The notes under the pieces: generated by a model
Seen by the model: the letters and a program-made list of their open reading frames with translations, nothing else
Databases searched by the model: none
Told to the model about the DNA's origin: nothing
Program-made: the position numbers and the translations under genes
Sequence record: OZ035786.1
Direction: 5' to 3' (one strand)
Length of the DNA stretch: 45,312 nt
Source: Veterinaerplatzvirus T145P1
Shown here: one piece after another, positions 15,846-39,830 of the stretch
Position numbering within the stretch: the first letter of the stretch is position 1
Layout: the number at the start of each line of letters is the position of its first letter

Positions 15846-18800
15846 ATGGCACAAATGATCAAAACAAACATGAGGCTTTGTGATATGGCTGAAGATATTA
15901 AGATTTATGGTGCTAAGGGTGGTAGCCAGAAGCAGCACCAACCAGTGGAACAAGAAGACAACCTGATTTCATTAAACAAGGTCAAGGTATTACTTGCGGT
16001 TGCTGACGGCGAGGTTGACCCTAACTTCTCAATGAAAGATTTATACCTTGCTGACGTTCCGGTGCAAAACCAGGATGGTAGCTACAACTATGATGGTGTT
16101 CGCGCTGAGTTCCGTGCTGGCACGCAGTATCAGGACTATATCGCCGGGCTTGACGGTGCTAACTCAGAGATTCAGGCATCCAGAGAAATCAAGAACGATA
16201 CCCCGTACATCATTGCGGTTAACAATACTCAGCTTTCAGCAATTCGAGTTAAGCTATTTTGGCCTCGACTGGTTAAGCAAGAAAACAACGGAGACCTGAA
16301 CGGAACAACTTGCGAGTACGCAATTGACCTTTCTGTTAATGGTGGTGCTTACCAGGAATACACTCGCGGAGTTGCTAACGGCAAGACAACTACAGGTTAC
16401 GACCGAAGCATTCGCGTAAACCTTCCGGCAGAGTTTGATAGTGCGCTTGTTCGCATCCGTAAGATTACAGCTGACTCAACGAGCAGCACACTGGTTAACG
16501 GAATGCAGATTACAACCTATCAGGAAGTAATCGACGCCAAATTCCGCTACCCGCTTACGGCTCTGGTCTATGTTGAGTTTGGTTCTGACTTGTTCCCTAA
16601 CGGCATCCCGACAATCTCAATAAAGAAGCGTTGGAAGCTAATTCAGGTACCGACAAACTACGACCCGGAGACAAGGACTTACAGCGGGACATGGAATGGC
16701 TTATTCAAGATGGCATGGTCGAATAACCCGGCATGGGTTCTCTATGACCTGGTGACAAACCGACGCTATGGGCTTGACCAGCGAGAGTTGGGTGTAGAGA
16801 TTGATAAATGGGGCTTGTATGAAGCCGCGCAATTCTGTGACCAGATGGTTCCAGATGGTAAGGGTGGTTTAGAGCCGCGTTACCTTTGCGATATGGTTGT
16901 GCAAAACAAGGTTGAGGCCTACACGCTAATTCGTGATATCTGCTCAATCTTCCGTGGTCTGACTTTCTATGACGGTGAAAAGATTGGTATCGTGGTTGAT
17001 AAGCCTCGCAACCCATCTTACATCTTCACCAATGATAACGTTGTAAACGGATTGTTCAGTCGAACCTTTGCCAGTGATAAAAGCCTTTACACCACGGCAA
17101 ACGTCCAGTTTGATGATGTAGAGAACAACTATCAACAGGATGTTGAGCCGGTATTTGAATTAGAGGCAACTCGTCGTTTTGGATTTAACCCTGTAGATTT
17201 AACTGCGATTGGATGCACTCGCAGAAGTGAAGCAAACAGACGTGGCAGATGGCTCCTGAAAACAAACCTGAGAAGCGAAACTATCAGCTTCACTACTGGG
17301 TTGGAAGGTATGATTCCGATGATTGGCGAGGTAATTGCGGTCAATGACGCTGCATGGTCTAGCAACTATCAGTTAAACCTTTCCGGTCGTATTGAGTCAG
17401 TTCAGGGGTTGCAGGTTTTTACCCCTTTTAAAGTTGACGCAGCGCCTGGTGACAGAATTCTTCTGAACAAGCCAGACGGAAGTCCAGAGGCAAGAACTAT
17501 TGCCAGCGTTTCGGAGGATGGAAGAACAATCAACCTTAACACTGCTTTTAGTTTTGTAGCTCAACCTGACACTGTTTTCGCAATCGATAAGGATAATCTC
17601 GCGCTTCAACAGTATGTTGTGACCGGGATTCAAAAAGCAGATTCTGATGGCTCTGATTCATTCCAGTATACGATTACCGCAGTAGAGTATGACCCGAACA
17701 AGTATGATGAGATTGATTATGGTGTAAACATTGTTGACCGCCCAACATCAATTGTTGAGCCTGATAGATTGTCGCCACCTGAGAACTTAACAGTATCAAG
17801 CTACAGTAAGGTTGTTCAAGGGTTGTCAGTTGAGACGATGGTTATCGGATGGGATAAAGCTCCATACGCTAAAACATACAATGTTCAGTGGAGGAAAGAA
17901 AATGGCAACTGGATTAACGTACCCAGAACGGCAAGTACAGAGGTTGATATCGAAGGTATTTACGCAGGAATCTATGACGTTAGGGTTCGCAGCGTATCAG
18001 ATACTGAAAACGTGTCTGCCTGGTCTGGCATTGTAACCGTATCGCTAACTGGCAAGATTGGTCGCCCATCGGCACCTACTGTTATCACGGCATCAACAGA
18101 TGAGGTATTTGGCATCCGTGTTAAGTGGGGTTTCCCTGAGGGTTCTGGTGACACTGCTTACACTGAACTTCAGCAGGTCCCTGATAATGGTGACGGCACT
18201 TACAATCCTGATAACGCAAGTTTGCTGACGTTACTGCCTTATCCAGCCTATGAATACTGGCACACGCCAATTCAGCCGGGTAAGGTCATCTGGTATCGCG
18301 CAAGATTGATTGACAGAATCGGCAATACCTCTGATTGGTCTTATTTCGCTAGAGGTATGAGTACTGACGACGCCAACATCATCAACGATTATATCAAGGT
18401 TGATATTGAAGGCTCGGAGGGTTTTAAATACCTAGAGCAGAATGCGATTCAAAAGAACCAGGACATTCAGAATCAAGCCGAGGCAATCATCGAGAACGCG
18501 CTGGCTAATGATGGCGATGTTCGTCGCATGACTAAGGAGAACGGCAAGCGTAAGGCTGAATATGTTCAGGCTGTGAATCTCATAGCTGATGAAACTCAGG
18601 CGCGTGTAGAGGCTCTTACGCAGCTTAAAGCGCAGATTGATGATGAGGTTGTTTCATCGATTACAGAAGTTCAGACTGCATTAGCAACAGAGACAGAAGC
18701 AAGAACTACTGCGGATACGGCTCTATCAGCAAGACTTGGTGAAAACGAGGCTGCACTAAACCAGAAGCTGGACGCTTTTTCTAACGCCACATCGACTGGT

Positions 18801-19271
18801 GTACAGTATGGGATTAGTCTTGGCCTGAAATACAACGGACAGACTTATTCATCCGGCATGAGTATGGAGCTTGTTGGCACTGGTGGGAATGTTCGCAGTC
18901 AGTTCATCTTTGACGCAAACAGATTCGCAATCAGTAACGGCATTGGTTCTGGTTCCGGTCAGTGGCAACTCCCATTCGTTGTAGAGAATGGAAACGTAAT
19001 AATCCAAAGCGCAGTAATCGGCGATGGCTCAATTACTAACGCTAAGATTGGTAATATAATTTCATCAAATGATTATGTGGCAGGCTCTCAGGGATGGGCG
19101 ATACTGAAAAGTGGTGCGTCAGAGTTCAATAACACAACTGTAAGGGGCAATCTTTACGCTAACAATGGTAACTTTGCTTTTAACGGAACCAATAACACGG
19201 TTCAGATTAACAATAACGGAATCACTGTAAACTTACCGAACGGAGGAAGAGTGGTAGTTGGAGTGTGGTAA
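15846..19271 (+). CDS. central tail fibre / host specificity protein (lambda J-like)
   Basis: 1141 aa following M-L-K-I; in-frame alternative ATGs at 15870 and 15885 (the latter with a weak SD), so the true start is uncertain. Confidence 0.85.
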   Translation: MAQMIKTNMRLCDMAEDIKIYGAKGGSQKQHQPVEQEDNLISLNKVKVLLAVADGEVDPNFSMKDLYLADVPVQNQDGSYNYDGVRAEFRAGTQYQDYIAGLDGANSEIQASREIKNDTPYIIAVNNTQLSAIRVKLFWPRLVKQENNGDLNGTTCEYAIDLSVNGGAYQEYTRGVANGKTTTGYDRSIRVNLPAEFDSALVRIRKITADSTSSTLVNGMQITTYQEVIDAKFRYPLTALVYVEFGSDLFPNGIPTISIKKRWKLIQVPTNYDPETRTYSGTWNGLFKMAWSNNPAWVLYDLVTNRRYGLDQRELGVEIDKWGLYEAAQFCDQMVPDGKGGLEPRYLCDMVVQNKVEAYTLIRDICSIFRGLTFYDGEKIGIVVDKPRNPSYIFTNDNVVNGLFSRTFASDKSLYTTANVQFDDVENNYQQDVEPVFELEATRRFGFNPVDLTAIGCTRRSEANRRGRWLLKTNLRSETISFTTGLEGMIPMIGEVIAVNDAAWSSNYQLNLSGRIESVQGLQVFTPFKVDAAPGDRILLNKPDGSPEARTIASVSEDGRTINLNTAFSFVAQPDTVFAIDKDNLALQQYVVTGIQKADSDGSDSFQYTITAVEYDPNKYDEIDYGVNIVDRPTSIVEPDRLSPPENLTVSSYSKVVQGLSVETMVIGWDKAPYAKTYNVQWRKENGNWINVPRTASTEVDIEGIYAGIYDVRVRSVSDTENVSAWSGIVTVSLTGKIGRPSAPTVITASTDEVFGIRVKWGFPEGSGDTAYTELQQVPDNGDGTYNPDNASLLTLLPYPAYEYWHTPIQPGKVIWYRARLIDRIGNTSDWSYFARGMSTDDANIINDYIKVDIEGSEGFKYLEQNAIQKNQDIQNQAEAIIENALANDGDVRRMTKENGKRKAEYVQAVNLIADETQARVEALTQLKAQIDDEVVSSITEVQTALATETEARTTADTALSARLGENEAALNQKLDAFSNATSTGVQYGISLGLKYNGQTYSSGMSMELVGTGGNVRSQFIFDANRFAISNGIGSGSGQWQLPFVVENGNVIIQSAVIGDGSITNAKIGNIISSNDYVAGSQGWAILKSGASEFNNTTVRGNLYANNGNFAFNGTNNTVQINNNGITVNLPNGGRVVVGVW

Positions 19272-19275
19272 TAAA

Positions 19276-19302
19276 TAAAGCCCCTTAATTGGGGCTTTTC
19301 TT
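19276..19302. terminator. bidirectional rho-independent terminator
   Basis: agcccc-ttaatt-ggggct hairpin flanked by A-run and T-run between convergent genes. Confidence 0.75.
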
Positions 19303-20274
19303 TTAGTAGAAGTTTGGGATAAATGGAAGTGCCATTGATATGTTCGTGTCGAAAGGAAACTGAGCGCCTGTCTGAGTTGAGTAGTTACCTATTACAGATC
19401 CAGGAACAGCCCTAACGGAGCCTCCAGACATGCAAACACCCTTGTATCGTAAGTTGTTATACCCTCCGGTAACTCTAGTTGTAGCGCCGCACCTAAGCAG
19501 CGGGAAGAAACCACCATTTATTGACTGATATCCATTGCTTATTTGTATAAATCCACCAAGAACGAATGGGCGGCGAACACTTGAAAAAACAATCTGACCA
19601 GAACTATTTGACATTGTGAGTCCAGGCCCGGCCGGTGGTGGTTCATTCCTGAATATCACCAGCTGAACATGGGTACTTGCCGCAACATCATCTGTACCTC
19701 CGTAGGTTATATCCCTACACCATATTGTTGATCCATCTGATTCAAGTGATACGTTTGGATTATCCCACTTGCCGAATGGTATTCCGCTAACTGGTAGCGA
19801 TGCTGCACCGTTAACCTGTATGCCCCCAACCCAGGCCGCAGACATTAGCCGCGAGTTGCTTGATATAGCAAGGAAATCAGTTGAGTTCTCAACAAGTATT
19901 CCAGGACTTGATGAGGATGAAGCCGGTAGTATCTCAAAGCAATTACCAGCAAAGTCAATTATTCGACCATTAGCACCATTGAAGTTGCTGATAGTTATCC
20001 TGCCAGTTCCGTCATTTACCTTTTGAAACCCGTTCATGTAATAAACTTCGGGTATAACATCGTAAGCGTCAACGTGGACTGCCTTCGTTGGTAGGCAGAA
20101 AGCCGTAGAGCCAGGAAACATTGTCAATCCAAAATCCCACGAGATTGCCGGGGTTGAAAGTCCATTGGTATTTATTGATCCAGTCACAGCAGGTGCCCTT
20201 AATCCTGCCGTGATTTCCATCGCTGGTCTTCCGTCATTGAGGTCAATCAATATACCCTGCGGCATTATTTCCAC
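19303..20274 (-). CDS. putative receptor-binding protein (tail tip accessory, downstream of J, opposite strand)
   Basis: 323-aa Gly/Ser/Asn-rich ORF co-transcribed with a lipoprotein gene; arrangement resembles receptor-binding protein plus exclusion lipoprotein loci of T1/T5-type phages. Confidence 0.4.
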
Positions 20275-20510
20275 TCCTTACTGCCGTGATCTGCAACAGA
20301 ACCGCCGTAACCGCCGCCAGATTTGCTTTCAATGCCAGCGTAGCGAATATCAACCTCACCAGCCGGAACAACTACACCGCCTTTCCACTTAGCTACGCAC
20401 ACGCCGTTTGCTTGTGTTGCACACCACCCATCAGGTCGAGGACCAGAAGAACAACCTACTGTCATGATTACTGCCGCCGAGATGATTGCTGATTTGATGA
20501 AGTTAGTCAT
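20265..20510 (-). CDS. small lipoprotein, putative superinfection-exclusion protein (Cor/Llp-like)
   Basis: Start moved to Met17 of track ORF (SD aaggaa 8 nt upstream). Signal peptide with lipobox MTVGCSS; 81 aa; overlaps start of the downstream gene. Confidence 0.5.
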
Positions 20511-20549
20511 TTTGTATTCCTTATTAAGTTGTTTCGTTTTGATGTAGTA

Positions 20550-20594
20550 ATAATACAACCGTCAGTGCGGAATGTCTTTAGCTATTCGTGCTAT
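20550..20594 (-). promoter_or_regulatory. phage promoter family copy (minus strand)
   Basis: Reverse complement reads atagcacgaatagctaaag, 22 bp, tattat, then catcaaaacgaaac leader before the lipoprotein gene. Confidence 0.5.
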
Positions 20595-20690
20595 TGCATA
20601 CACGTAACCGATGTAACTCGATGTATACAATCTCATCCGCGGAAAATGATATACGCACTGTTACGCAAATTTACGCATTGGTTACATTAA

Positions 20691-20752
20691 AATATCTATA
20701 TATATCAACCTTTTACTCTTATTATTATTATATATATATTACTGTGTATATC
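20691..20752. repeat. AT-rich repeat block copy 1 (second copy near 39755)
   Basis: aatatctatatatatcaaccttttact-(TTA)n-tatatat-tactgtgtata; within a divergent intergenic region. Confidence 0.6.
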
Positions 20753-20851
20753 ATGTAACTACTTCTATAGAGTGTTCCGGTTATAATTTTAATATCATGT
20801 GGATTTATACAGTATTGCGCTGCAGCTATACCAATGCACCCTCAGCAATAA

Positions 20852-21250
20852 ATGATATACACGATATACACGATGGTTACATTGAGCTATAGCTGGGCCG
20901 AGATGCCAAAAAACGTAACTAGTGCCAATGCCTACACGGAATTACAAGGATTCACGCGTAAACTTAAATCAACGATTGGCAAAACCAATTGGACTGGTTA
21001 CGGTGCCGAATATATAGTTAACTCATCGAAAGCAAACAACCAGAGAGATACAGAAATGACCTACTACATTATCAAAGAGAAAAACAACGCACTGTTCGGT
21101 GATTGCTACTTTGGCGGCCCTGCTGGATATACCACAGATAAGAAAGAGGCTGACAGATTCGAGACTAAAGAAGAAGCCCGAGATGTGCTGACTGGTTACT
21201 TCACTGAAGAAGATTTGAAGTCTGTTAAAGTGGTTAAGGTTAAGGAATAA
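20852..21250 (+). CDS. hypothetical protein
   Basis: 132-aa ORF; first ATG lacks a clear SD and sits inside gatatacac repeats; in-frame ATGs at 20873 and 20903. Confidence 0.4.
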   Translation: MIYTIYTMVTLSYSWAEMPKNVTSANAYTELQGFTRKLKSTIGKTNWTGYGAEYIVNSSKANNQRDTEMTYYIIKEKNNALFGDCYFGGPAGYTTDKKEADRFETKEEARDVLTGYFTEEDLKSVKVVKVKE

Positions 21251-21253
21251 AAT

Positions 21254-21451
21254 ATGAAGGCTTTTATAGACATAAATAAGTCACCATACAACGACGAGAA
21301 AGATCCTGAGGTAAGATTAAGGGTAAAATTTAGCACAGGAAGGGAGATAAATATAACAACTACATGTTCTGATTTAGCGAAAGCACTTATGGGTTGTAGT
21401 GAAGTTCCTGTTACTGTTTCAACGAGAAATGTTGAGGTGAAAATAAAATGA
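21254..21451 (+). CDS. hypothetical protein
   Basis: 65-aa ORF with SD aaggaa, coupled to the downstream exonuclease gene. Confidence 0.5.
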   Translation: MKAFIDINKSPYNDEKDPEVRLRVKFSTGREINITTTCSDLAKALMGCSEVPVTVSTRNVEVKIK

Positions 21452-22413
21452 CTTTCAGGGTTTACACACGAGAGGAGCTAAGCAACGAGGATTACCACTC
21501 AGAGCAAGATCATATCTCCGGCAGCTCACTTGTCGAGATTATCCAAGGATCACCAGCTAAGTGGAAGTTCAAGCAACGCAATAGAGATAGCAAGGCGCTT
21601 AAGTTTGGTACCTTATCTCACTGCATGATTCTCGAACAAGATGTATTCGACAAGGAGTATTTGCGAGCAGTAGACCTTGACGCGATTGAAGGCTTAATTA
21701 CAAGCCGGGCAGGATTAGCAGCAGCACTTAAAAAAGTCGGTGTGGCTGGAACATCAGGGAAGGGCTATAGCGAGCTTGTAGAGATGATGTATCGTTCTGG
21801 CGAGGACTGGCCCATTAAGTGGCTAATTGATCAGCTGGAAAGCGCTCAAGCGCTTGTGGAGGGTAAGGAGCTAGTTAGCGCAGCAGACTATGACAAAGTT
21901 GTGGCTATGCGTGAGGTTCTTTGCAATATTCCGGCATACAATGCAATCGTGAATAGTGAGACGGCGCAGAAAGAGTTATCAATCTTCGGTGAGATTCTCG
22001 GCGTCGGCGTTAAGATTCGAATTGACCATGTTGATGTTGTTGATGGCGTCGTTCGGATCACGGATTATAAAACGACAGCCGACGCAAGCCCTGAAGGATT
22101 TGGTAAGTCTGCATTTAATCACGGATACCTTGCAAAAATGGCGCTTCAGCGCGATCTGTTTGTGAAAGCATTTAACGAGAAGCGCAAGGTTGTTGTAGGA
22201 TTGCTGGCGCAGGAGAAGGTGGAGCCATACCTACCAATGCTGTACACACTAACCGACGAACAGCTGCGAATTGGTCGCCTTCAGTATCTTGAGGCACTTG
22301 CAACTTACAAGAAGTGCAAGGAGCTTGATATTTGGCCTGGATATTCTAACGGCATTACAGAGCAAGAGCTATTGGTTCCTGATTGGGCCATTAAACAATA
22401 TAGAGAGATATAA
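21448..22413 (+). CDS. PD-(D/E)XK family exonuclease (recombination exonuclease)
   Basis: Motif IDHVDVVDGVVRITDYKT resembles the D...(D/E)xK nuclease core; sits with erf and ssb. Confidence 0.55.
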   Translation: MTFRVYTREELSNEDYHSEQDHISGSSLVEIIQGSPAKWKFKQRNRDSKALKFGTLSHCMILEQDVFDKEYLRAVDLDAIEGLITSRAGLAAALKKVGVAGTSGKGYSELVEMMYRSGEDWPIKWLIDQLESAQALVEGKELVSAADYDKVVAMREVLCNIPAYNAIVNSETAQKELSIFGEILGVGVKIRIDHVDVVDGVVRITDYKTTADASPEGFGKSAFNHGYLAKMALQRDLFVKAFNEKRKVVVGLLAQEKVEPYLPMLYTLTDEQLRIGRLQYLEALATYKKCKELDIWPGYSNGITEQELLVPDWAIKQYREI

Positions 22414-24100: not shown

Positions 24101-26683
24101 TTAACCTATTTTAGTGTAAGTCCATTGGTATGTTGCAGCTCCCTTGGCAGTTATCCCGACAGTTCTTCCACTTACATCCATTGAAGTGAAAGCGCCAGTT
24201 TTTGTAATTGTTATTGATGATGTGGAACCATCAAAAAGTACGTCAGCAATTACACTATAGTTAGGTCCAGCACCAGTAACCCAGGTCGAAACCTTGTATA
24301 AACCAGCGTTGTTTGGCAACTCAAAAAGACCAGTTGAAACATTCGCCTGAACAGCCATCGCGCCCTTTCCGGTGTACACACCGTCAGTTTTAAGACCTAA
24401 TGATGAATATGTTTGCTTATAGCCACCAATGATGGCACCACCCATAGGTTCAGTAAACCAGTTCACATTACCCTGACTAACAACAGATATCGCTGGAGAC
24501 CCCCCTTTAGCTGACTGAAACCTACCGCTTAAAATGTCAATTCTAGATGCTGAGTCCTGGGCGTAGATAGTTACAGGATACCCACCAGAACCAGTGTAAA
24601 CCAAGCCGTTATCATTAATGTCATCTTCAGACGAGTCAATGATTACATGGGAAGTTCCAGACGCCTTGATGAACGAAACAACACCGCTAGAACCAGCACC
24701 TGTTGTTCTAACTTCATTCTTCCATGATGTTAGGCCTGAAATTCTGCCATTTGAGTTATTAAACCTAATCAGGCAACAATCTTGCGATCCGTTGGTGTCA
24801 ATAATGTTACCTTCAACGTCCATCCCTAGTATGTTTACGCTATGGCTGTTGATGAAGTTAATCCCAGCACCACCGTAAGAACCAGATGTTGATGATATAT
24901 TACTGGCATCCATTGCGCAGTTAATCATTGTAACGCTCATTACCGAACCAAATTCATAAGGTGAAATGCAATCTGATGCGTAACAAGTCTCAAGCAATAT
25001 TGTCGTTCCTGTCGCCTTTATGAATCCAGTCCTGCAATTCCTGGCCCAAACATTCTGTAGCTTAGTCTGGTATGTTGCAGTGGTGTCCGTGTAGCAACCC
25101 CATGCTCCATGGACTGTGCAATCTTTGATACATGAATTTTCTAGCCCTGTTGCAGAACCAACATTAGAAACGAAGTTAAATGCTATCTTTTGATCATTCC
25201 CTGATGCTGAGGTAGGTGTAGTGCCTGGGTTATAAAAAATGTAAAGTCCCTCAATAAACACTTGATACATTCTTATGTTTTGCGCATCACCCTGAACCAG
25301 GGCGAATAGGTTTATGTTCCCATCAACTGAGATAAATGTTTGCGCCCTGTTAATTTGGTTTGTTCCCTCGCCAATAATTCTTGTACTGTTGCCAATCCTC
25401 ACCGTCCTGTTAATGAACATAAAACCTTTTGGTATGTATACAGTTTTACCGGTATTAACTGCCGCCTGAAGCGCAACTGCGTCAAGTGACTCGTTAAGGT
25501 TTGATGCAAATGGATAAACAAACCGCGCATCCTCAATTGTCGAGAATTTAGATGAAAGAGGAACTAAAGTACCATTGTTTGTAGCACCAAAATCCATGAC
25601 GTTAACAAAGTCACCAAGTTTACTATCCTTACTCCTTTCTACAAATGAGGCCAATGTAGATTTGTAATTCATCGAACTGAATTGTGATTGAGCCTCTGTC
25701 TTTGAATAAACATCTGATCTTGGGTAAACCTCTGATTTTGAATAAACATCAAGCAAACCCCTAGCTCTTTCAGCAGTAGCGCCGCCAACCGACTTCCCGC
25801 CTTCAACCATAATGTATTCGCGTAAGTAGAAGTTTCTTGATCCTTTAGCGCCCGTCATCCTGAGGTGAGTAGCCCTATATGATGAATCAGAATTCAATGC
25901 CGGATATATATCAATCTCATAAGAGCCTTGAGCTCCACTTGTGCCCCTAACACATATAAAAAGCGTAGCGTTGGCTGTAGTGTATGTCGCAGCTAGTGAT
26001 GCTGGAACGTTTGTCATGTTAGATACTACAACTCGATAATTACCACCACTTTTAAATTCAACTTGCTGCCAATCCAATGATGGCATAGCTATTGTCGATG
26101 TGCTTGCGATACCCTCATTGGCTAGAGTAACCAAAGTTGCAGCATCACCAGCGTTGGCAATGACATTAACTGTGTTGTTGTATGCCTCCTGCGCACTACT
26201 TGCGCTTGATTCAGCCTGAGCCTTGCTTGTAGCGGCAGCTTGCTGGCTGGCAGATGCAGCCGATTCGCTTGAAGCCGCATTTGTTTCGCTTGCCTTCGCC
26301 TCATCAACTAATCGTTGTAACTTATCGAAATCAAAATCACCAGATTCAGCCAACTCAACAAGTGACGCAACCTCAGTTTCACGTGACTGATAGTAACGAA
26401 GAGTTTCCGCAACATCCTGAGCTAGCCCCTGAACGGTAATTCCATCATGCGCAAGGATAGCGTAACCAGTTCCAGCAGGAACAGTTTCGGAGTTAGGGTT
26501 GTAAACATTAATCTGCGTATCGCTGATAATTTCTGAGATGGTGTAAATCTGTACTGGTTCAGTTTTAAATACAATGGTTGCACCTACGCGAATCAGTGTA
26601 AGAGGTGCTTTCCATGTTGTCCCGACGCCAGTCACCTCACCACTTGCTGCTAGAGAAGCTGTTCCTGAGTCATAAATTGCCAT
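24101..26683 (-). CDS. tailspike / lateral tail fibre with beta-helix (pectate-lyase-like) depolymerase domain
   Basis: Start moved to Met11 of track ORF (SD ggaga 9 nt upstream; track start is GTG). Ala/Ser/Gln-rich coiled-coil neck, then long Cys/Asn/Gly-rich repeat region typical of right-handed beta-helix tailspikes. Confidence 0.7.
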   Translation of the reverse strand: MAIYDSGTASLAASGEVTGVGTTWKAPLTLIRVGATIVFKTEPVQIYTISEIISDTQINVYNPNSETVPAGTGYAILAHDGITVQGLAQDVAETLRYYQSRETEVASLVELAESGDFDFDKLQRLVDEAKASETNAASSESAASASQQAAATSKAQAESSASSAQEAYNNTVNVIANAGDAATLVTLANEGIASTSTIAMPSLDWQQVEFKSGGNYRVVVSNMTNVPASLAATYTTANATLFICVRGTSGAQGSYEIDIYPALNSDSSYRATHLRMTGAKGSRNFYLREYIMVEGGKSVGGATAERARGLLDVYSKSEVYPRSDVYSKTEAQSQFSSMNYKSTLASFVERSKDSKLGDFVNVMDFGATNNGTLVPLSSKFSTIEDARFVYPFASNLNESLDAVALQAAVNTGKTVYIPKGFMFINRTVRIGNSTRIIGEGTNQINRAQTFISVDGNINLFALVQGDAQNIRMYQVFIEGLYIFYNPGTTPTSASGNDQKIAFNFVSNVGSATGLENSCIKDCTVHGAWGCYTDTTATYQTKLQNVWARNCRTGFIKATGTTILLETCYASDCISPYEFGSVMSVTMINCAMDASNISSTSGSYGGAGINFINSHSVNILGMDVEGNIIDTNGSQDCCLIRFNNSNGRISGLTSWKNEVRTTGAGSSGVVSFIKASGTSHVIIDSSEDDINDNGLVYTGSGGYPVTIYAQDSASRIDILSGRFQSAKGGSPAISVVSQGNVNWFTEPMGGAIIGGYKQTYSSLGLKTDGVYTGKGAMAVQANVSTGLFELPNNAGLYKVSTWVTGAGPNYSVIADVLFDGSTSSITITKTGAFTSMDVSGRTVGITAKGAATYQWTYTKIG

Positions 26684-26706
26684 TGTGTAGAGTCTCCATT
26701 TGTAAA

Positions 26707-26725
26707 ATAGCACGAATTGCTAAAG
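26707..26725. promoter_or_regulatory. orphan copy of the TAGCA-N5-TGCTA palindrome (no TATAGT box downstream)
   Basis: atagcacgaattgctaaag in + orientation between primase terminator and tailspike start, both on minus strand. Confidence 0.5.
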
Positions 26726-26747
26726 TGGATTGTAGCATCTTTGAGTC

Positions 26748-26770
26748 ATAAAAAAACCTCCCGAAGGAGG
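26748..26770 (-). terminator. rho-independent terminator (minus strand)
   Basis: cctcc-cgaa-ggagg hairpin with A8 run on + strand, i.e. U-run after the hairpin on the minus transcript. Confidence 0.7.
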
Positions 26771-39470: not shown

Positions 39471-39754
39471 TCGTTAGATTTATGTATTGTTGCAGATATT
39501 GCAATGATTCACTTGATTATTGCACATACAGCAATATTGCTTCCGATGCAATGATGTTTTTGATTGTTGCGAAAAGTGAAATTAAGTGGTGAGTGAGTGA
39601 ATGAAAGATGGATGGACTACCATACAAGTTGATTTTTACCAATCTATGGGAGCCTCACGGATATACGCGTATCCTCCGTATACTCAGTGTCGTCACAAAA
39701 GTTAGTGACCACTAACCTACGTTTTTACGCGATATATACACACGATATACAATA

Positions 39755-39830
39755 TAATATCTATATATATCAACCTTTTACTTTATTATTATTATTATTA
39801 TTATATATATGTATACTGTGTATACCGGTA
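39755..39830. repeat. AT-rich repeat block copy 2 (first copy near 20691)
   Basis: aatatctatatatatcaaccttttact-(TTA)n-tatatat-tactgtgtata with a longer TTA tract; the track ORF here is a poly-Leu artefact. Confidence 0.6.

Follow-up and report, generated by a model that had tools for sequence, protein, structure and literature searches.

In the window analyzed here (the whole stretch of 45,312 nucleotides from Veterinaerplatzvirus T145P1, sequence record OZ035786.1), the ORF map placed two minus-strand genes next to the 3' end of the gene for a J-like central tail fibre (15846-19271, plus strand, 1141 aa; Pfam FNIII-A_GpJ, Phage-tail_3 and Phage_Tail_Tip), before a divergent intergenic region. 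This position agreed with an earlier note on this DNA, which had described a reverse-strand pair opposite the tail module. The larger gene (19303-20265) encodes a predicted receptor-binding protein (RBP) of 320 aa plus stop, and the smaller one (20265-20510) encodes the 81-aa precursor, plus stop, of a predicted superinfection-exclusion lipoprotein of the Rtp45 type. Since both matched Pfam families (DUF6453, E = 3e-139; Phage_lipoprotein PF24052, E = 8e-39), they were taken as real genes and not as chance ORFs. The region matched unannotated Veterinaerplatzvirus T145P1 records at 100% identity and annotated relatives, e.g., 2725-N35 and SU57, at 93-99%. The genus Veterinaerplatzvirus, which also includes JeanPiccard/Bas02, belongs to the subfamily Braunvirinae within the Drexlerviridae.

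The stop codons of J (19271) and the RBP gene (19303) are convergent, with a terminator alone between them, and the same J/RBP layout was found in SU57, OzMSK, Rtp, Bas01 and Bas02. This intrinsic terminator (19277-19298), a hairpin composed of AAAGCCCC-TTAATT-GGGGCTTT with a fold of about -14 kcal/mol, is flanked by T-rich tracts on both strands, as expected from the earlier proposal of a bidirectional terminator common to J and the gene pair. At the homologous site of SU57 a terminator is annotated on both strands. The description of this T1-like coliphage module as an operon of two minus-strand genes, with a promoter of its own and a hairpin terminator common with J, holds.

The operon promoter was located on the minus strand at 20550-20594, and comprises ATAGCACGAATAGCTAAA (20594-20577), a -35-like AAGACA (20578-20573) and, after a spacer of 17 nt, a -10-like TATTAT (20555-20550), followed by the leader CATCAAAACGAAAC (conserved form CATC(G/A)AAACGA). 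The earlier note had given the lipoprotein gene its own promoter copy, which corresponds to ATAGCACGAATAGCTAAA. This sequence is one copy of the motif ATAGCACNNNTTGCTAAA, present 19 times in the window versus 0.18 copies expected by chance, and the operon site was also matched by the consensus scan. The copies are in register with a TATAGT-like -10 approximately 20 nt downstream and with a CATCGAAACGA leader, most of them then followed by a Shine-Dalgarno sequence and ATG. Because the distance from TTGCTA to the -10 is approximately 22 nt, the inverted repeat TAGCA-N5-TGCTA resembles a regulator site next to a weak -35 more than it does a -35 itself. The Rtp genome paper of 2006 is said to have ascribed an inverted-repeat motif, ATAGCAC...TTGCTAAA, to the regulator Rtp52. 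In the analyzed genome the promoter motif was also found upstream of structural-module genes (2116 and 9293) and of many small-ORF operons; as it precedes so many kinds of genes, it gives no indication of when the operon is expressed.

Translation signals were recognized for both genes, each of them at a place equivalent to that of an annotated ribosome-binding site in SU57 and OzMSK. A Shine-Dalgarno-like AAGGA (20518-20522, minus strand) precedes the lipoprotein gene, and the Shine-Dalgarno sequence of the RBP gene (AAGGAG, 20274-20279, minus strand) falls within the lipoprotein gene, near its 3' end, 8 nt upstream of the ATG at 20265. The mechanical ORF call had set the start of the larger gene at GTG 20274, and the earlier note had accordingly reported 323 aa and a 10-nt overlap. 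This start was rejected, given that the GTG falls within the Shine-Dalgarno sequence (20279-20274) and that every annotated homologue begins at the Met equivalent to ATG 20265-20263, i.e., those in the SU57, OzMSK, Rtp, Bas01 and Bas02 annotations; the Oekolampad protein of known structure begins at this same Met as well. The RBP therefore has 320 aa, and the stop and start codons overlap by 1 nt (TAATG), an arrangement that suggests translational coupling of the RBP gene to the lipoprotein gene.

The product of the smaller gene has the features of an exported lipoprotein. Its predicted signal peptide spans residues 1-19, with K6 in the n-region and a hydrophobic core, and the signal region reads AAVIMTVG followed by C20 and SS. 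The predicted lipidated residue is Cys20 (codon 20453-20451), which leaves a mature protein of 62 aa. The lipobox (IMTVG before the cysteine), described as textbook in the earlier note on the basis of TVGC, matched the PROSITE-type rule, and the Ser at position +2 implies sorting to the outer membrane. In family searches (Pfam, E <= 0.1; PHROGs, E <= 0.01) the sole matches were PF24052 (E = 7.7e-39, 132 bits against a cut-off of 27; residues 1-80 aligned to profile positions 1-80 of 80) and phrog_4281, whose function is unannotated; membership in the Cor/Llp family was not detected. The label "Cor" carried by the homologue from vB_Ec-G8 is a functional naming only.

At the level of individual proteins, the lipoprotein matched Rtp45 in the structure of its complex with LptDE-LptM (PDB 9RPS_D, E = 5.3e-35), and was 78.9% identical to Rtp45 and 93.8% identical to the lipoprotein of OzMSK. 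Cysteines occur only at positions 20, 30 and 38, so that the Cys30/Cys38 pair is kept, and residues 20-60 are nearly identical to those of Rtp45, including the hairpin and the segment 30-35 (CATQAN vs. CATQAS in Rtp45). In the 9RPS structure, Cys30 and Cys38 of Rtp45 form a disulfide and the strand 30-35 pairs with LptD residues 318-323, while the protein sits at the periplasmic side of LptDE, with its hairpin up the lumen moving the extracellular loop EL4 by up to 20 Å (PMC12685063). This displacement of EL4 prevents RBP binding. The earlier note had the lipoprotein masking the receptor; with the homologue Rtp45 bound at the periplasmic face of LptDE, masking at the surface does not describe its likely action. 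In the literature searched, no in-vivo exclusion assay was found for Rtp45-type proteins, for which the evidence is structural and from co-purification.

The benefit that the phage obtains from this lipoprotein could lie at either of two stages. It is quite possible, if short of probable, that with an unchanged mechanism its main role is to spare progeny from LptD in the debris of lysed cells, and not to exclude other phages early in infection. A debris-protection role was reportedly proposed for Rtp45 by Wietzorrek and colleagues in 2006, by analogy with T5 Llp. In the operon described here the lipoprotein gene is predicted to be co-transcribed and translationally coupled with a structural, late-function gene, and does not belong to an early operon, which is consistent with such a role. 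On the other hand, the motif in its promoter precedes varied genes and gives no reading of timing, and the two roles are not mutually exclusive; indeed, Dunbar et al. name both of them (PMC12685063).

Sequence comparisons assigned the larger protein to DUF6453 along its whole length (PF20051, E = 3.4e-139, 463.6 bits against a cut-off of 25), with residues 4-297 of 320 aligned to profile positions 1-291 of 291. Literature on this domain was limited, in our search, to incidental mention. Its sole relative in the PDB was the "tail fiber protein" chain of entries 9RPT, 9RPW and 9RQI, i.e., the RBP of phage Oekolampad (RBPOeko) bound to LptDE (9RPT_C, E = 5.5e-67, residues 2-320; 44.7% identity). 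As a full-length homologue with 45% identity has been solved (9RPT), a double beta-sandwich fold with a loop-bearing tip can safely be predicted for the RBP. The first 25 or so residues of the N-terminus are conserved across alleles and presumably form the J-proximal base. The glutamine aligned with Gln299 of RBPOeko is also conserved, the latter being the residue that touches LptD Ser350 (PMC12685063).

In public databases this protein carries other labels, namely "membrane protein" in RefSeq and "moron, auxiliary metabolic gene and host takeover" in PHROGs (PHROG 1265), and on these labels alone the 320-aa product could be regarded as a host-membrane protein or a moron and not as a virion RBP. 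The probability of this is practically negligible. No transmembrane-like segment was detected by hydropathy (maximum KD19 = 1.1), nor was there a signal peptide; the position of the RBP gene, and the way in which the RBP varies together with the tip of J, are in keeping with a tail-tip protein. Given the lack of a transmembrane segment, both labels were considered misannotations, and they were rejected on the grounds of hydropathy and of the solved structure of the homologue.

As regards the receptor, which the earlier note had left unnamed after recognizing no motif in the larger protein, the DUF6453 assignment and the comparison with characterized phages point to LptD. In a survey of 255 phages, the locus directly after gpJ was found to hold one of four unrelated families, corresponding to the receptors FhuA, BtuB, LptD and YncD, with membership in the LptD family defined by >30% identity at full coverage (bioRxiv 2026.04.02.716166). 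The RBP exceeded this identity, with near-complete coverage, against RBPs of phages with demonstrated LptD dependence (OzMSK_038, 96.2%; Oekolampad, 44.7%; Bas02, 41.9%; Bas01, 40.6%; all end to end). It was also 97.2% identical to SU57_00043, and 40-42% identical to alleles of the Rtp44 type (ca. 40% to Rtp44 itself). For seven small siphophages, Bas01 and Bas02 among them, resistance has been mapped to lptD, and the receptor has been shown to be predicted by the locus directly after gpJ (Maffei 2021). OzMSK does not infect the lptD mutants delta(Y658-Y678)::H or delta(L394-V396)::Y, and an engineered deletion of loop 11 made BL21(DE3) resistant; the OzMSK outbreak itself occurred in FhuA-disrupted laboratory strains (PMC13035648). 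In the structures 9RPT, 9RPW and 9RQI, the RBP of Oekolampad is inserted in LptDE in its open state and contacts EL3-5 and EL11 (PMC12685063). LptD was named as the receptor because OzMSK is LptD-dependent and its RBP is 96.2% identical to the one analyzed here. What was observed directly at this locus comprises the gene structure, the signals, membership in both families and high identity to characterized proteins, with the key residues kept; every sequence-level feature examined for LptD-specific RBPs and for Rtp45-type lipoproteins was present. The gene pair very probably encodes an LptD receptor-binding protein and an LptD-blocking lipoprotein of a Drexlerviridae phage, and the earlier assignment as an RBP plus an exclusion lipoprotein was supported, homologues of both having been shown to be such.

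The post-gpJ locus is, however, an exchangeable cassette that determines specificity and can hold any of several unrelated families, and the RBP shares only 40-45% identity with the alleles for which structures or BASEL genetics are available. The pair could then serve another receptor, such as FhuA, BtuB or YncD, or an additional one, as in the case of Bas01, which requires NupG as well as LptD, via a domain of J (bioRxiv 2026.04.02.716166). Any of these alternatives appears very unlikely. The loci for FhuA, BtuB and YncD encode unrelated families, while the RBP is a full-length DUF6453 protein; it shares 96% identity with its counterpart in OzMSK, a phage that arose in laboratory strains with disrupted FhuA and whose infection is stopped by lptD mutations; and the lipoprotein is 79% identical to Rtp45, for which the LptD-bound structure is available. 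Nor does the J protein contain the divergent segment of Bas01. A NupG co-receptor acting through a Bas01-like segment was rejected, as J residues 901-950 match Rtp and Bas02 and not Bas01 (96% identity to Rtp, 29% to Bas01).

The tip loops of the RBP differ from those of both the Oekolampad and the Rtp alleles, and Black et al. described three tip-loop groups among alleles (PMC13035648); because of these differences, the binding mode or the state of LptD that is bound could differ as well. The RBP allele of the window, which is of the OzMSK/Rogue1 type, might engage LptD via different loops or in the closed and not the open translocon state, and might need the J-tip variant inherited with it, in which case the Rtp45-type lipoprotein, nearly invariant among these phages, would be a universal blocker of all LptD-phage alleles; this extension is considered unlikely.

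The J protein and the DNA of the locus were also compared with those of related phages. J was 96-97% identical overall to Rtp43 and to the J protein of Bas02, but only 66-85% identical at residues 1051-1141, where an allele-specific indel of 5 aa was found. The tip of J, whose coding sequence spans 19020-19271 (plus strand) and which is the presumed docking site of the RBP, co-varied with the RBP allele: the C-terminus of J was GVW in three OzMSK-type phages and GTF in three phages of the Rtp44 type (a comparison of 3 vs. 3 with phylogeny uncontrolled). DNA identity to Rtp was 85-89% along the tail genes, collapsed at approximately 19020-20330, with no DNA similarity across 19304-20230, and then resumed. 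The lipoprotein differs from Rtp45 chiefly in its C-terminal tail, by a 5-aa insertion of the GGGYG type. The unit swapped with respect to Rtp and JeanPiccard thus reaches from ~80 codons before the end of J, through the RBP gene, to the part of the lipoprotein gene that encodes this tail. This observation is new but minor. Exchange of the J tip together with the RBP fits docking of the RBP base on the J tip. Both RBP allele types were present inside the genus Veterinaerplatzvirus, which matches the frequent horizontal transfer already reported for the post-gpJ locus (Maffei 2021; bioRxiv 2026.04.02.716166).

Taking these features together, we infer for this phage its receptor binding, the location of the RBP in the virion, the exclusion phenotype and the timing of expression, within the following model. 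From the single promoter (20594-20550), a bicistronic minus-strand transcript would extend to the hairpin common with J, carrying first the lipoprotein cistron and then that of the RBP, coupled via TAATG. Judging from its homologues, the RBP would be a monomeric beta-sandwich protein, seated by its N-terminal base on the distal tip of J, whose loop-rich tip would enter the extracellular face of LptDE (EL3-5 and EL11); this contact would lead to irreversible adsorption and DNA ejection. The 81-aa precursor, also by comparison with homologues, would be exported and acquire its lipid at Cys20; its destination would be the inner leaflet of the outer membrane, in line with the Ser at +2, and there it may bind LptD beside strands 5-8, between LptE and LptM. 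Its disulfide-braced hairpin, up the LptD lumen, would impose on EL4/EL5 a conformation that the RBP cannot bind, and the infected cell and its debris would then stop adsorbing LptD-using phages.

Searches (tblastn) with both proteins of the window also matched podophages of the Gordonclarkvirinae, with genomes of 68-78 kb. The Phage_Tail_Tip domain present at the C-terminus of J also occurs in the tail needle protein of the Kuravirus phages 172-1 and SU10 (gp18 in SU10). The gene next to the needle gene of SU10 encodes gp19, labelled "membrane protein", which matched DUF6453 well over the cut-off (E ~2e-23), and the gene after it encodes a transglycosylase ejection protein. A second match, gp123 of 172-1 (99 aa; PF24052, E = 1e-34), is encoded ~45 kb away among small unannotated ORFs, and keeps the lipobox, the motif RPDGWCA, both disulfide cysteines and the motif VPxGExDxR. 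The DUF6453 gene was conserved across Gordonclarkvirinae, including phiEco32, Bas86, Bas89, Bas91 and Bas93. The main text of the SU10 structure paper does not mention gp19 and leaves open the membrane trigger of the needle, and in the BASEL-2 paper a terminal receptor in the LPS core was assumed for these podophages by analogy; no connection between Kuravirus and LptD was found in the literature searched. These matches suggest that Kuravirus podophages may recognize LptD via a needle-tip DUF6453 protein and exclude competitors via an Rtp45-like lipoprotein.

The module itself is already known, as publications exist for the genome, for the gene pair and its receptor, and for structures of the homologues, which makes the finding an ordinary one. 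Its immediate value is in annotation, where a gene labelled "hypothetical" or "membrane protein" in public records can be given as that of a probable LptD RBP and its neighbour as that of a probable LptD-directed exclusion lipoprotein. It also leads to a sequence-based prediction: the phage should infect FhuA-deficient "T1-resistant" laboratory strains, and the published loop-11 deletion in lptD should stop infection. As LptD is essential and conserved, modules of this kind are relevant to phage steering and to the design of LptD inhibitors, a case already made by others. More useful by-products are the boundaries of the cassette (J tip, RBP and lipoprotein tail) and the Kuravirus hint.

Among known systems, the closest is that of OzMSK, in which the RBP gene (038) and gene 039 have the same gene order and strand, the same 1-nt overlap and the same place directly after J (PMC13035648). 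The two RBPs differ at 12 amino acids, and in OzMSK a DNA methylase gene is inserted upstream of the lipoprotein gene, which is not the case in the window. The Rtp44/Rtp45 locus has the same architecture, with a J protein 97% identical and with the lipobox, disulfide pair, strand and hairpin all kept, but it carries a different RBP allele (40% identity), J tip (~80 residues) and C-terminal tail of the lipoprotein. The RBP of Oekolampad (Bas18, Dhillonvirus) is of the same family and length as that of the window, with 44.7% identity end to end, although it belongs to a different phage family, its lipoprotein is ~35% identical to Rtp45, and the tip loops differ between the allele groups. Comparison also extends to T5, with pb5 and Llp, and T1, with Cor, the phage types to which the earlier note had likened the pair. 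The logic is the same, since they too have an RBP of their own at the tip of the central fibre and a small lipoprotein that, from the periplasmic side, makes the receptor unrecognizable; yet their receptor is FhuA and no sequence relationship to the window pair was detectable, so that the lipoprotein is an analogue of Cor and Llp and has no detectable homology to them. The two types of lipoprotein also differ in their way of acting, as Llp works by long-range allostery via FhuA, whereas Rtp45 physically displaces the loops of LptD (PMC12685063).

The divergent stretch around the gene for the DUF6453 receptor-binding protein (RBP; 19303-20265, -), which has LptD as its predicted receptor and is convergent with the J-like central tail fibre gene (15846-19271, +), was found to extend beyond the RBP gene. 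Relative to Rtp and JeanPiccard (Bas02), this exchangeable cassette covers window positions 19020-20330, taking in the last ~80 codons of J, with a 5-aa indel and a C-terminus ending in GVW vs. GTF, as well as the C-terminal tail of the Rtp45-type (PF24052) exclusion lipoprotein (20265-20510, -). In the six phages compared (three OzMSK-type and three Rtp44-type), RBP allele and J tip co-varied.

The junction upstream of the lipoprotein gene constitutes a second variable spot, since a DNA methyltransferase gene lies immediately upstream on the same strand in OzMSK (25064-25756, annotated as "DNA methylase"), Bas01 (24418-25107) and Bas02 (20962-21651; both Dcm-like C5 cytosine methyltransferases), while SU57, Rtp and the window (compared at 20511-20851) carry none at this junction. 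A 75-nt AT-rich direct repeat (TATATATATCAACCTTTTACT…TTATTATTAT…) has its first copy (20683-20757) in the divergent intergenic region that precedes this operon and its second at 39748-39822 (72% identity).

Across the window, the promoter/operator motif ATAGCAC-N3-TTGCTAAA was detected in 19 copies vs. 0.18 expected, including those at 2116, 9293, 20594 (-), 22880, 30741, 39470 (-), 42573 and 43950. The motif contains the inverted repeat TAGCA-N5-TGCTA, and is followed after ~20 nt by TATAGT and a conserved leader (CATCGAAACGA). The spacing between TTGCTA and the -10 element, of ~22 nt, is atypical for sigma-70, suggesting that this phage-wide motif is a regulator site. The copy at 26707 (+) is perfect, yet neither a -10 element nor a gene follows it; a terminator-like hairpin (AAAAAAACCTCCCGAAGGAGGTTAGT) is found after it instead (region 26707-26760). 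This copy overlaps the 5' end of an 870-aa ORF (24101-26713, -), which corresponds by position to the Rtp50/SU57 gene for a lateral fibre or tailspike.

With regard to database annotation, RefSeq consistently names LptD RBP homologues "membrane protein", and their PHROG category is "moron/host takeover". Both labels were rejected for the window RBP, a predicted tail-tip receptor-binding protein with no transmembrane segment. Drexlerviridae LptD modules of E. coli type were also present in phage records that give Pseudomonas syringae or Campylobacter jejuni as the host, among them PP134917.1 (Pseudomonas phage PsgS01F) and MG065663.1 (Campylobacter phage A134). The RBP of PsgS01F is 96.9% identical to that of the window, and its genome equals the E. 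coli phage record PQ314493.1 in length and match values; the host labels of records of this kind look doubtful.

Outside the window, the J-type Phage_Tail_Tip domain was present in the tail needle of Gordonclarkvirinae/Kuravirus podophages, where the gene for a DUF6453 protein directly follows the needle gene (172-1, NC_028903.1 28899-30903; SU10, NC_027395.1 19088-21089); the SU10 copy, gp19, likewise carries the label "membrane protein". A link between Kuravirus and LptD was not found in the literature searched. In 172-1, the sole podophage genome in which the gene was located and scanned, the PF24052 Rtp45-family lipoprotein is encoded at 75083-75382, ~45 kb from the needle/DUF6453 locus and amid small unannotated ORFs. 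Judging from these sequence relationships, LptD might be the terminal receptor of Gordonclarkvirinae/Kuravirus podophages as well.
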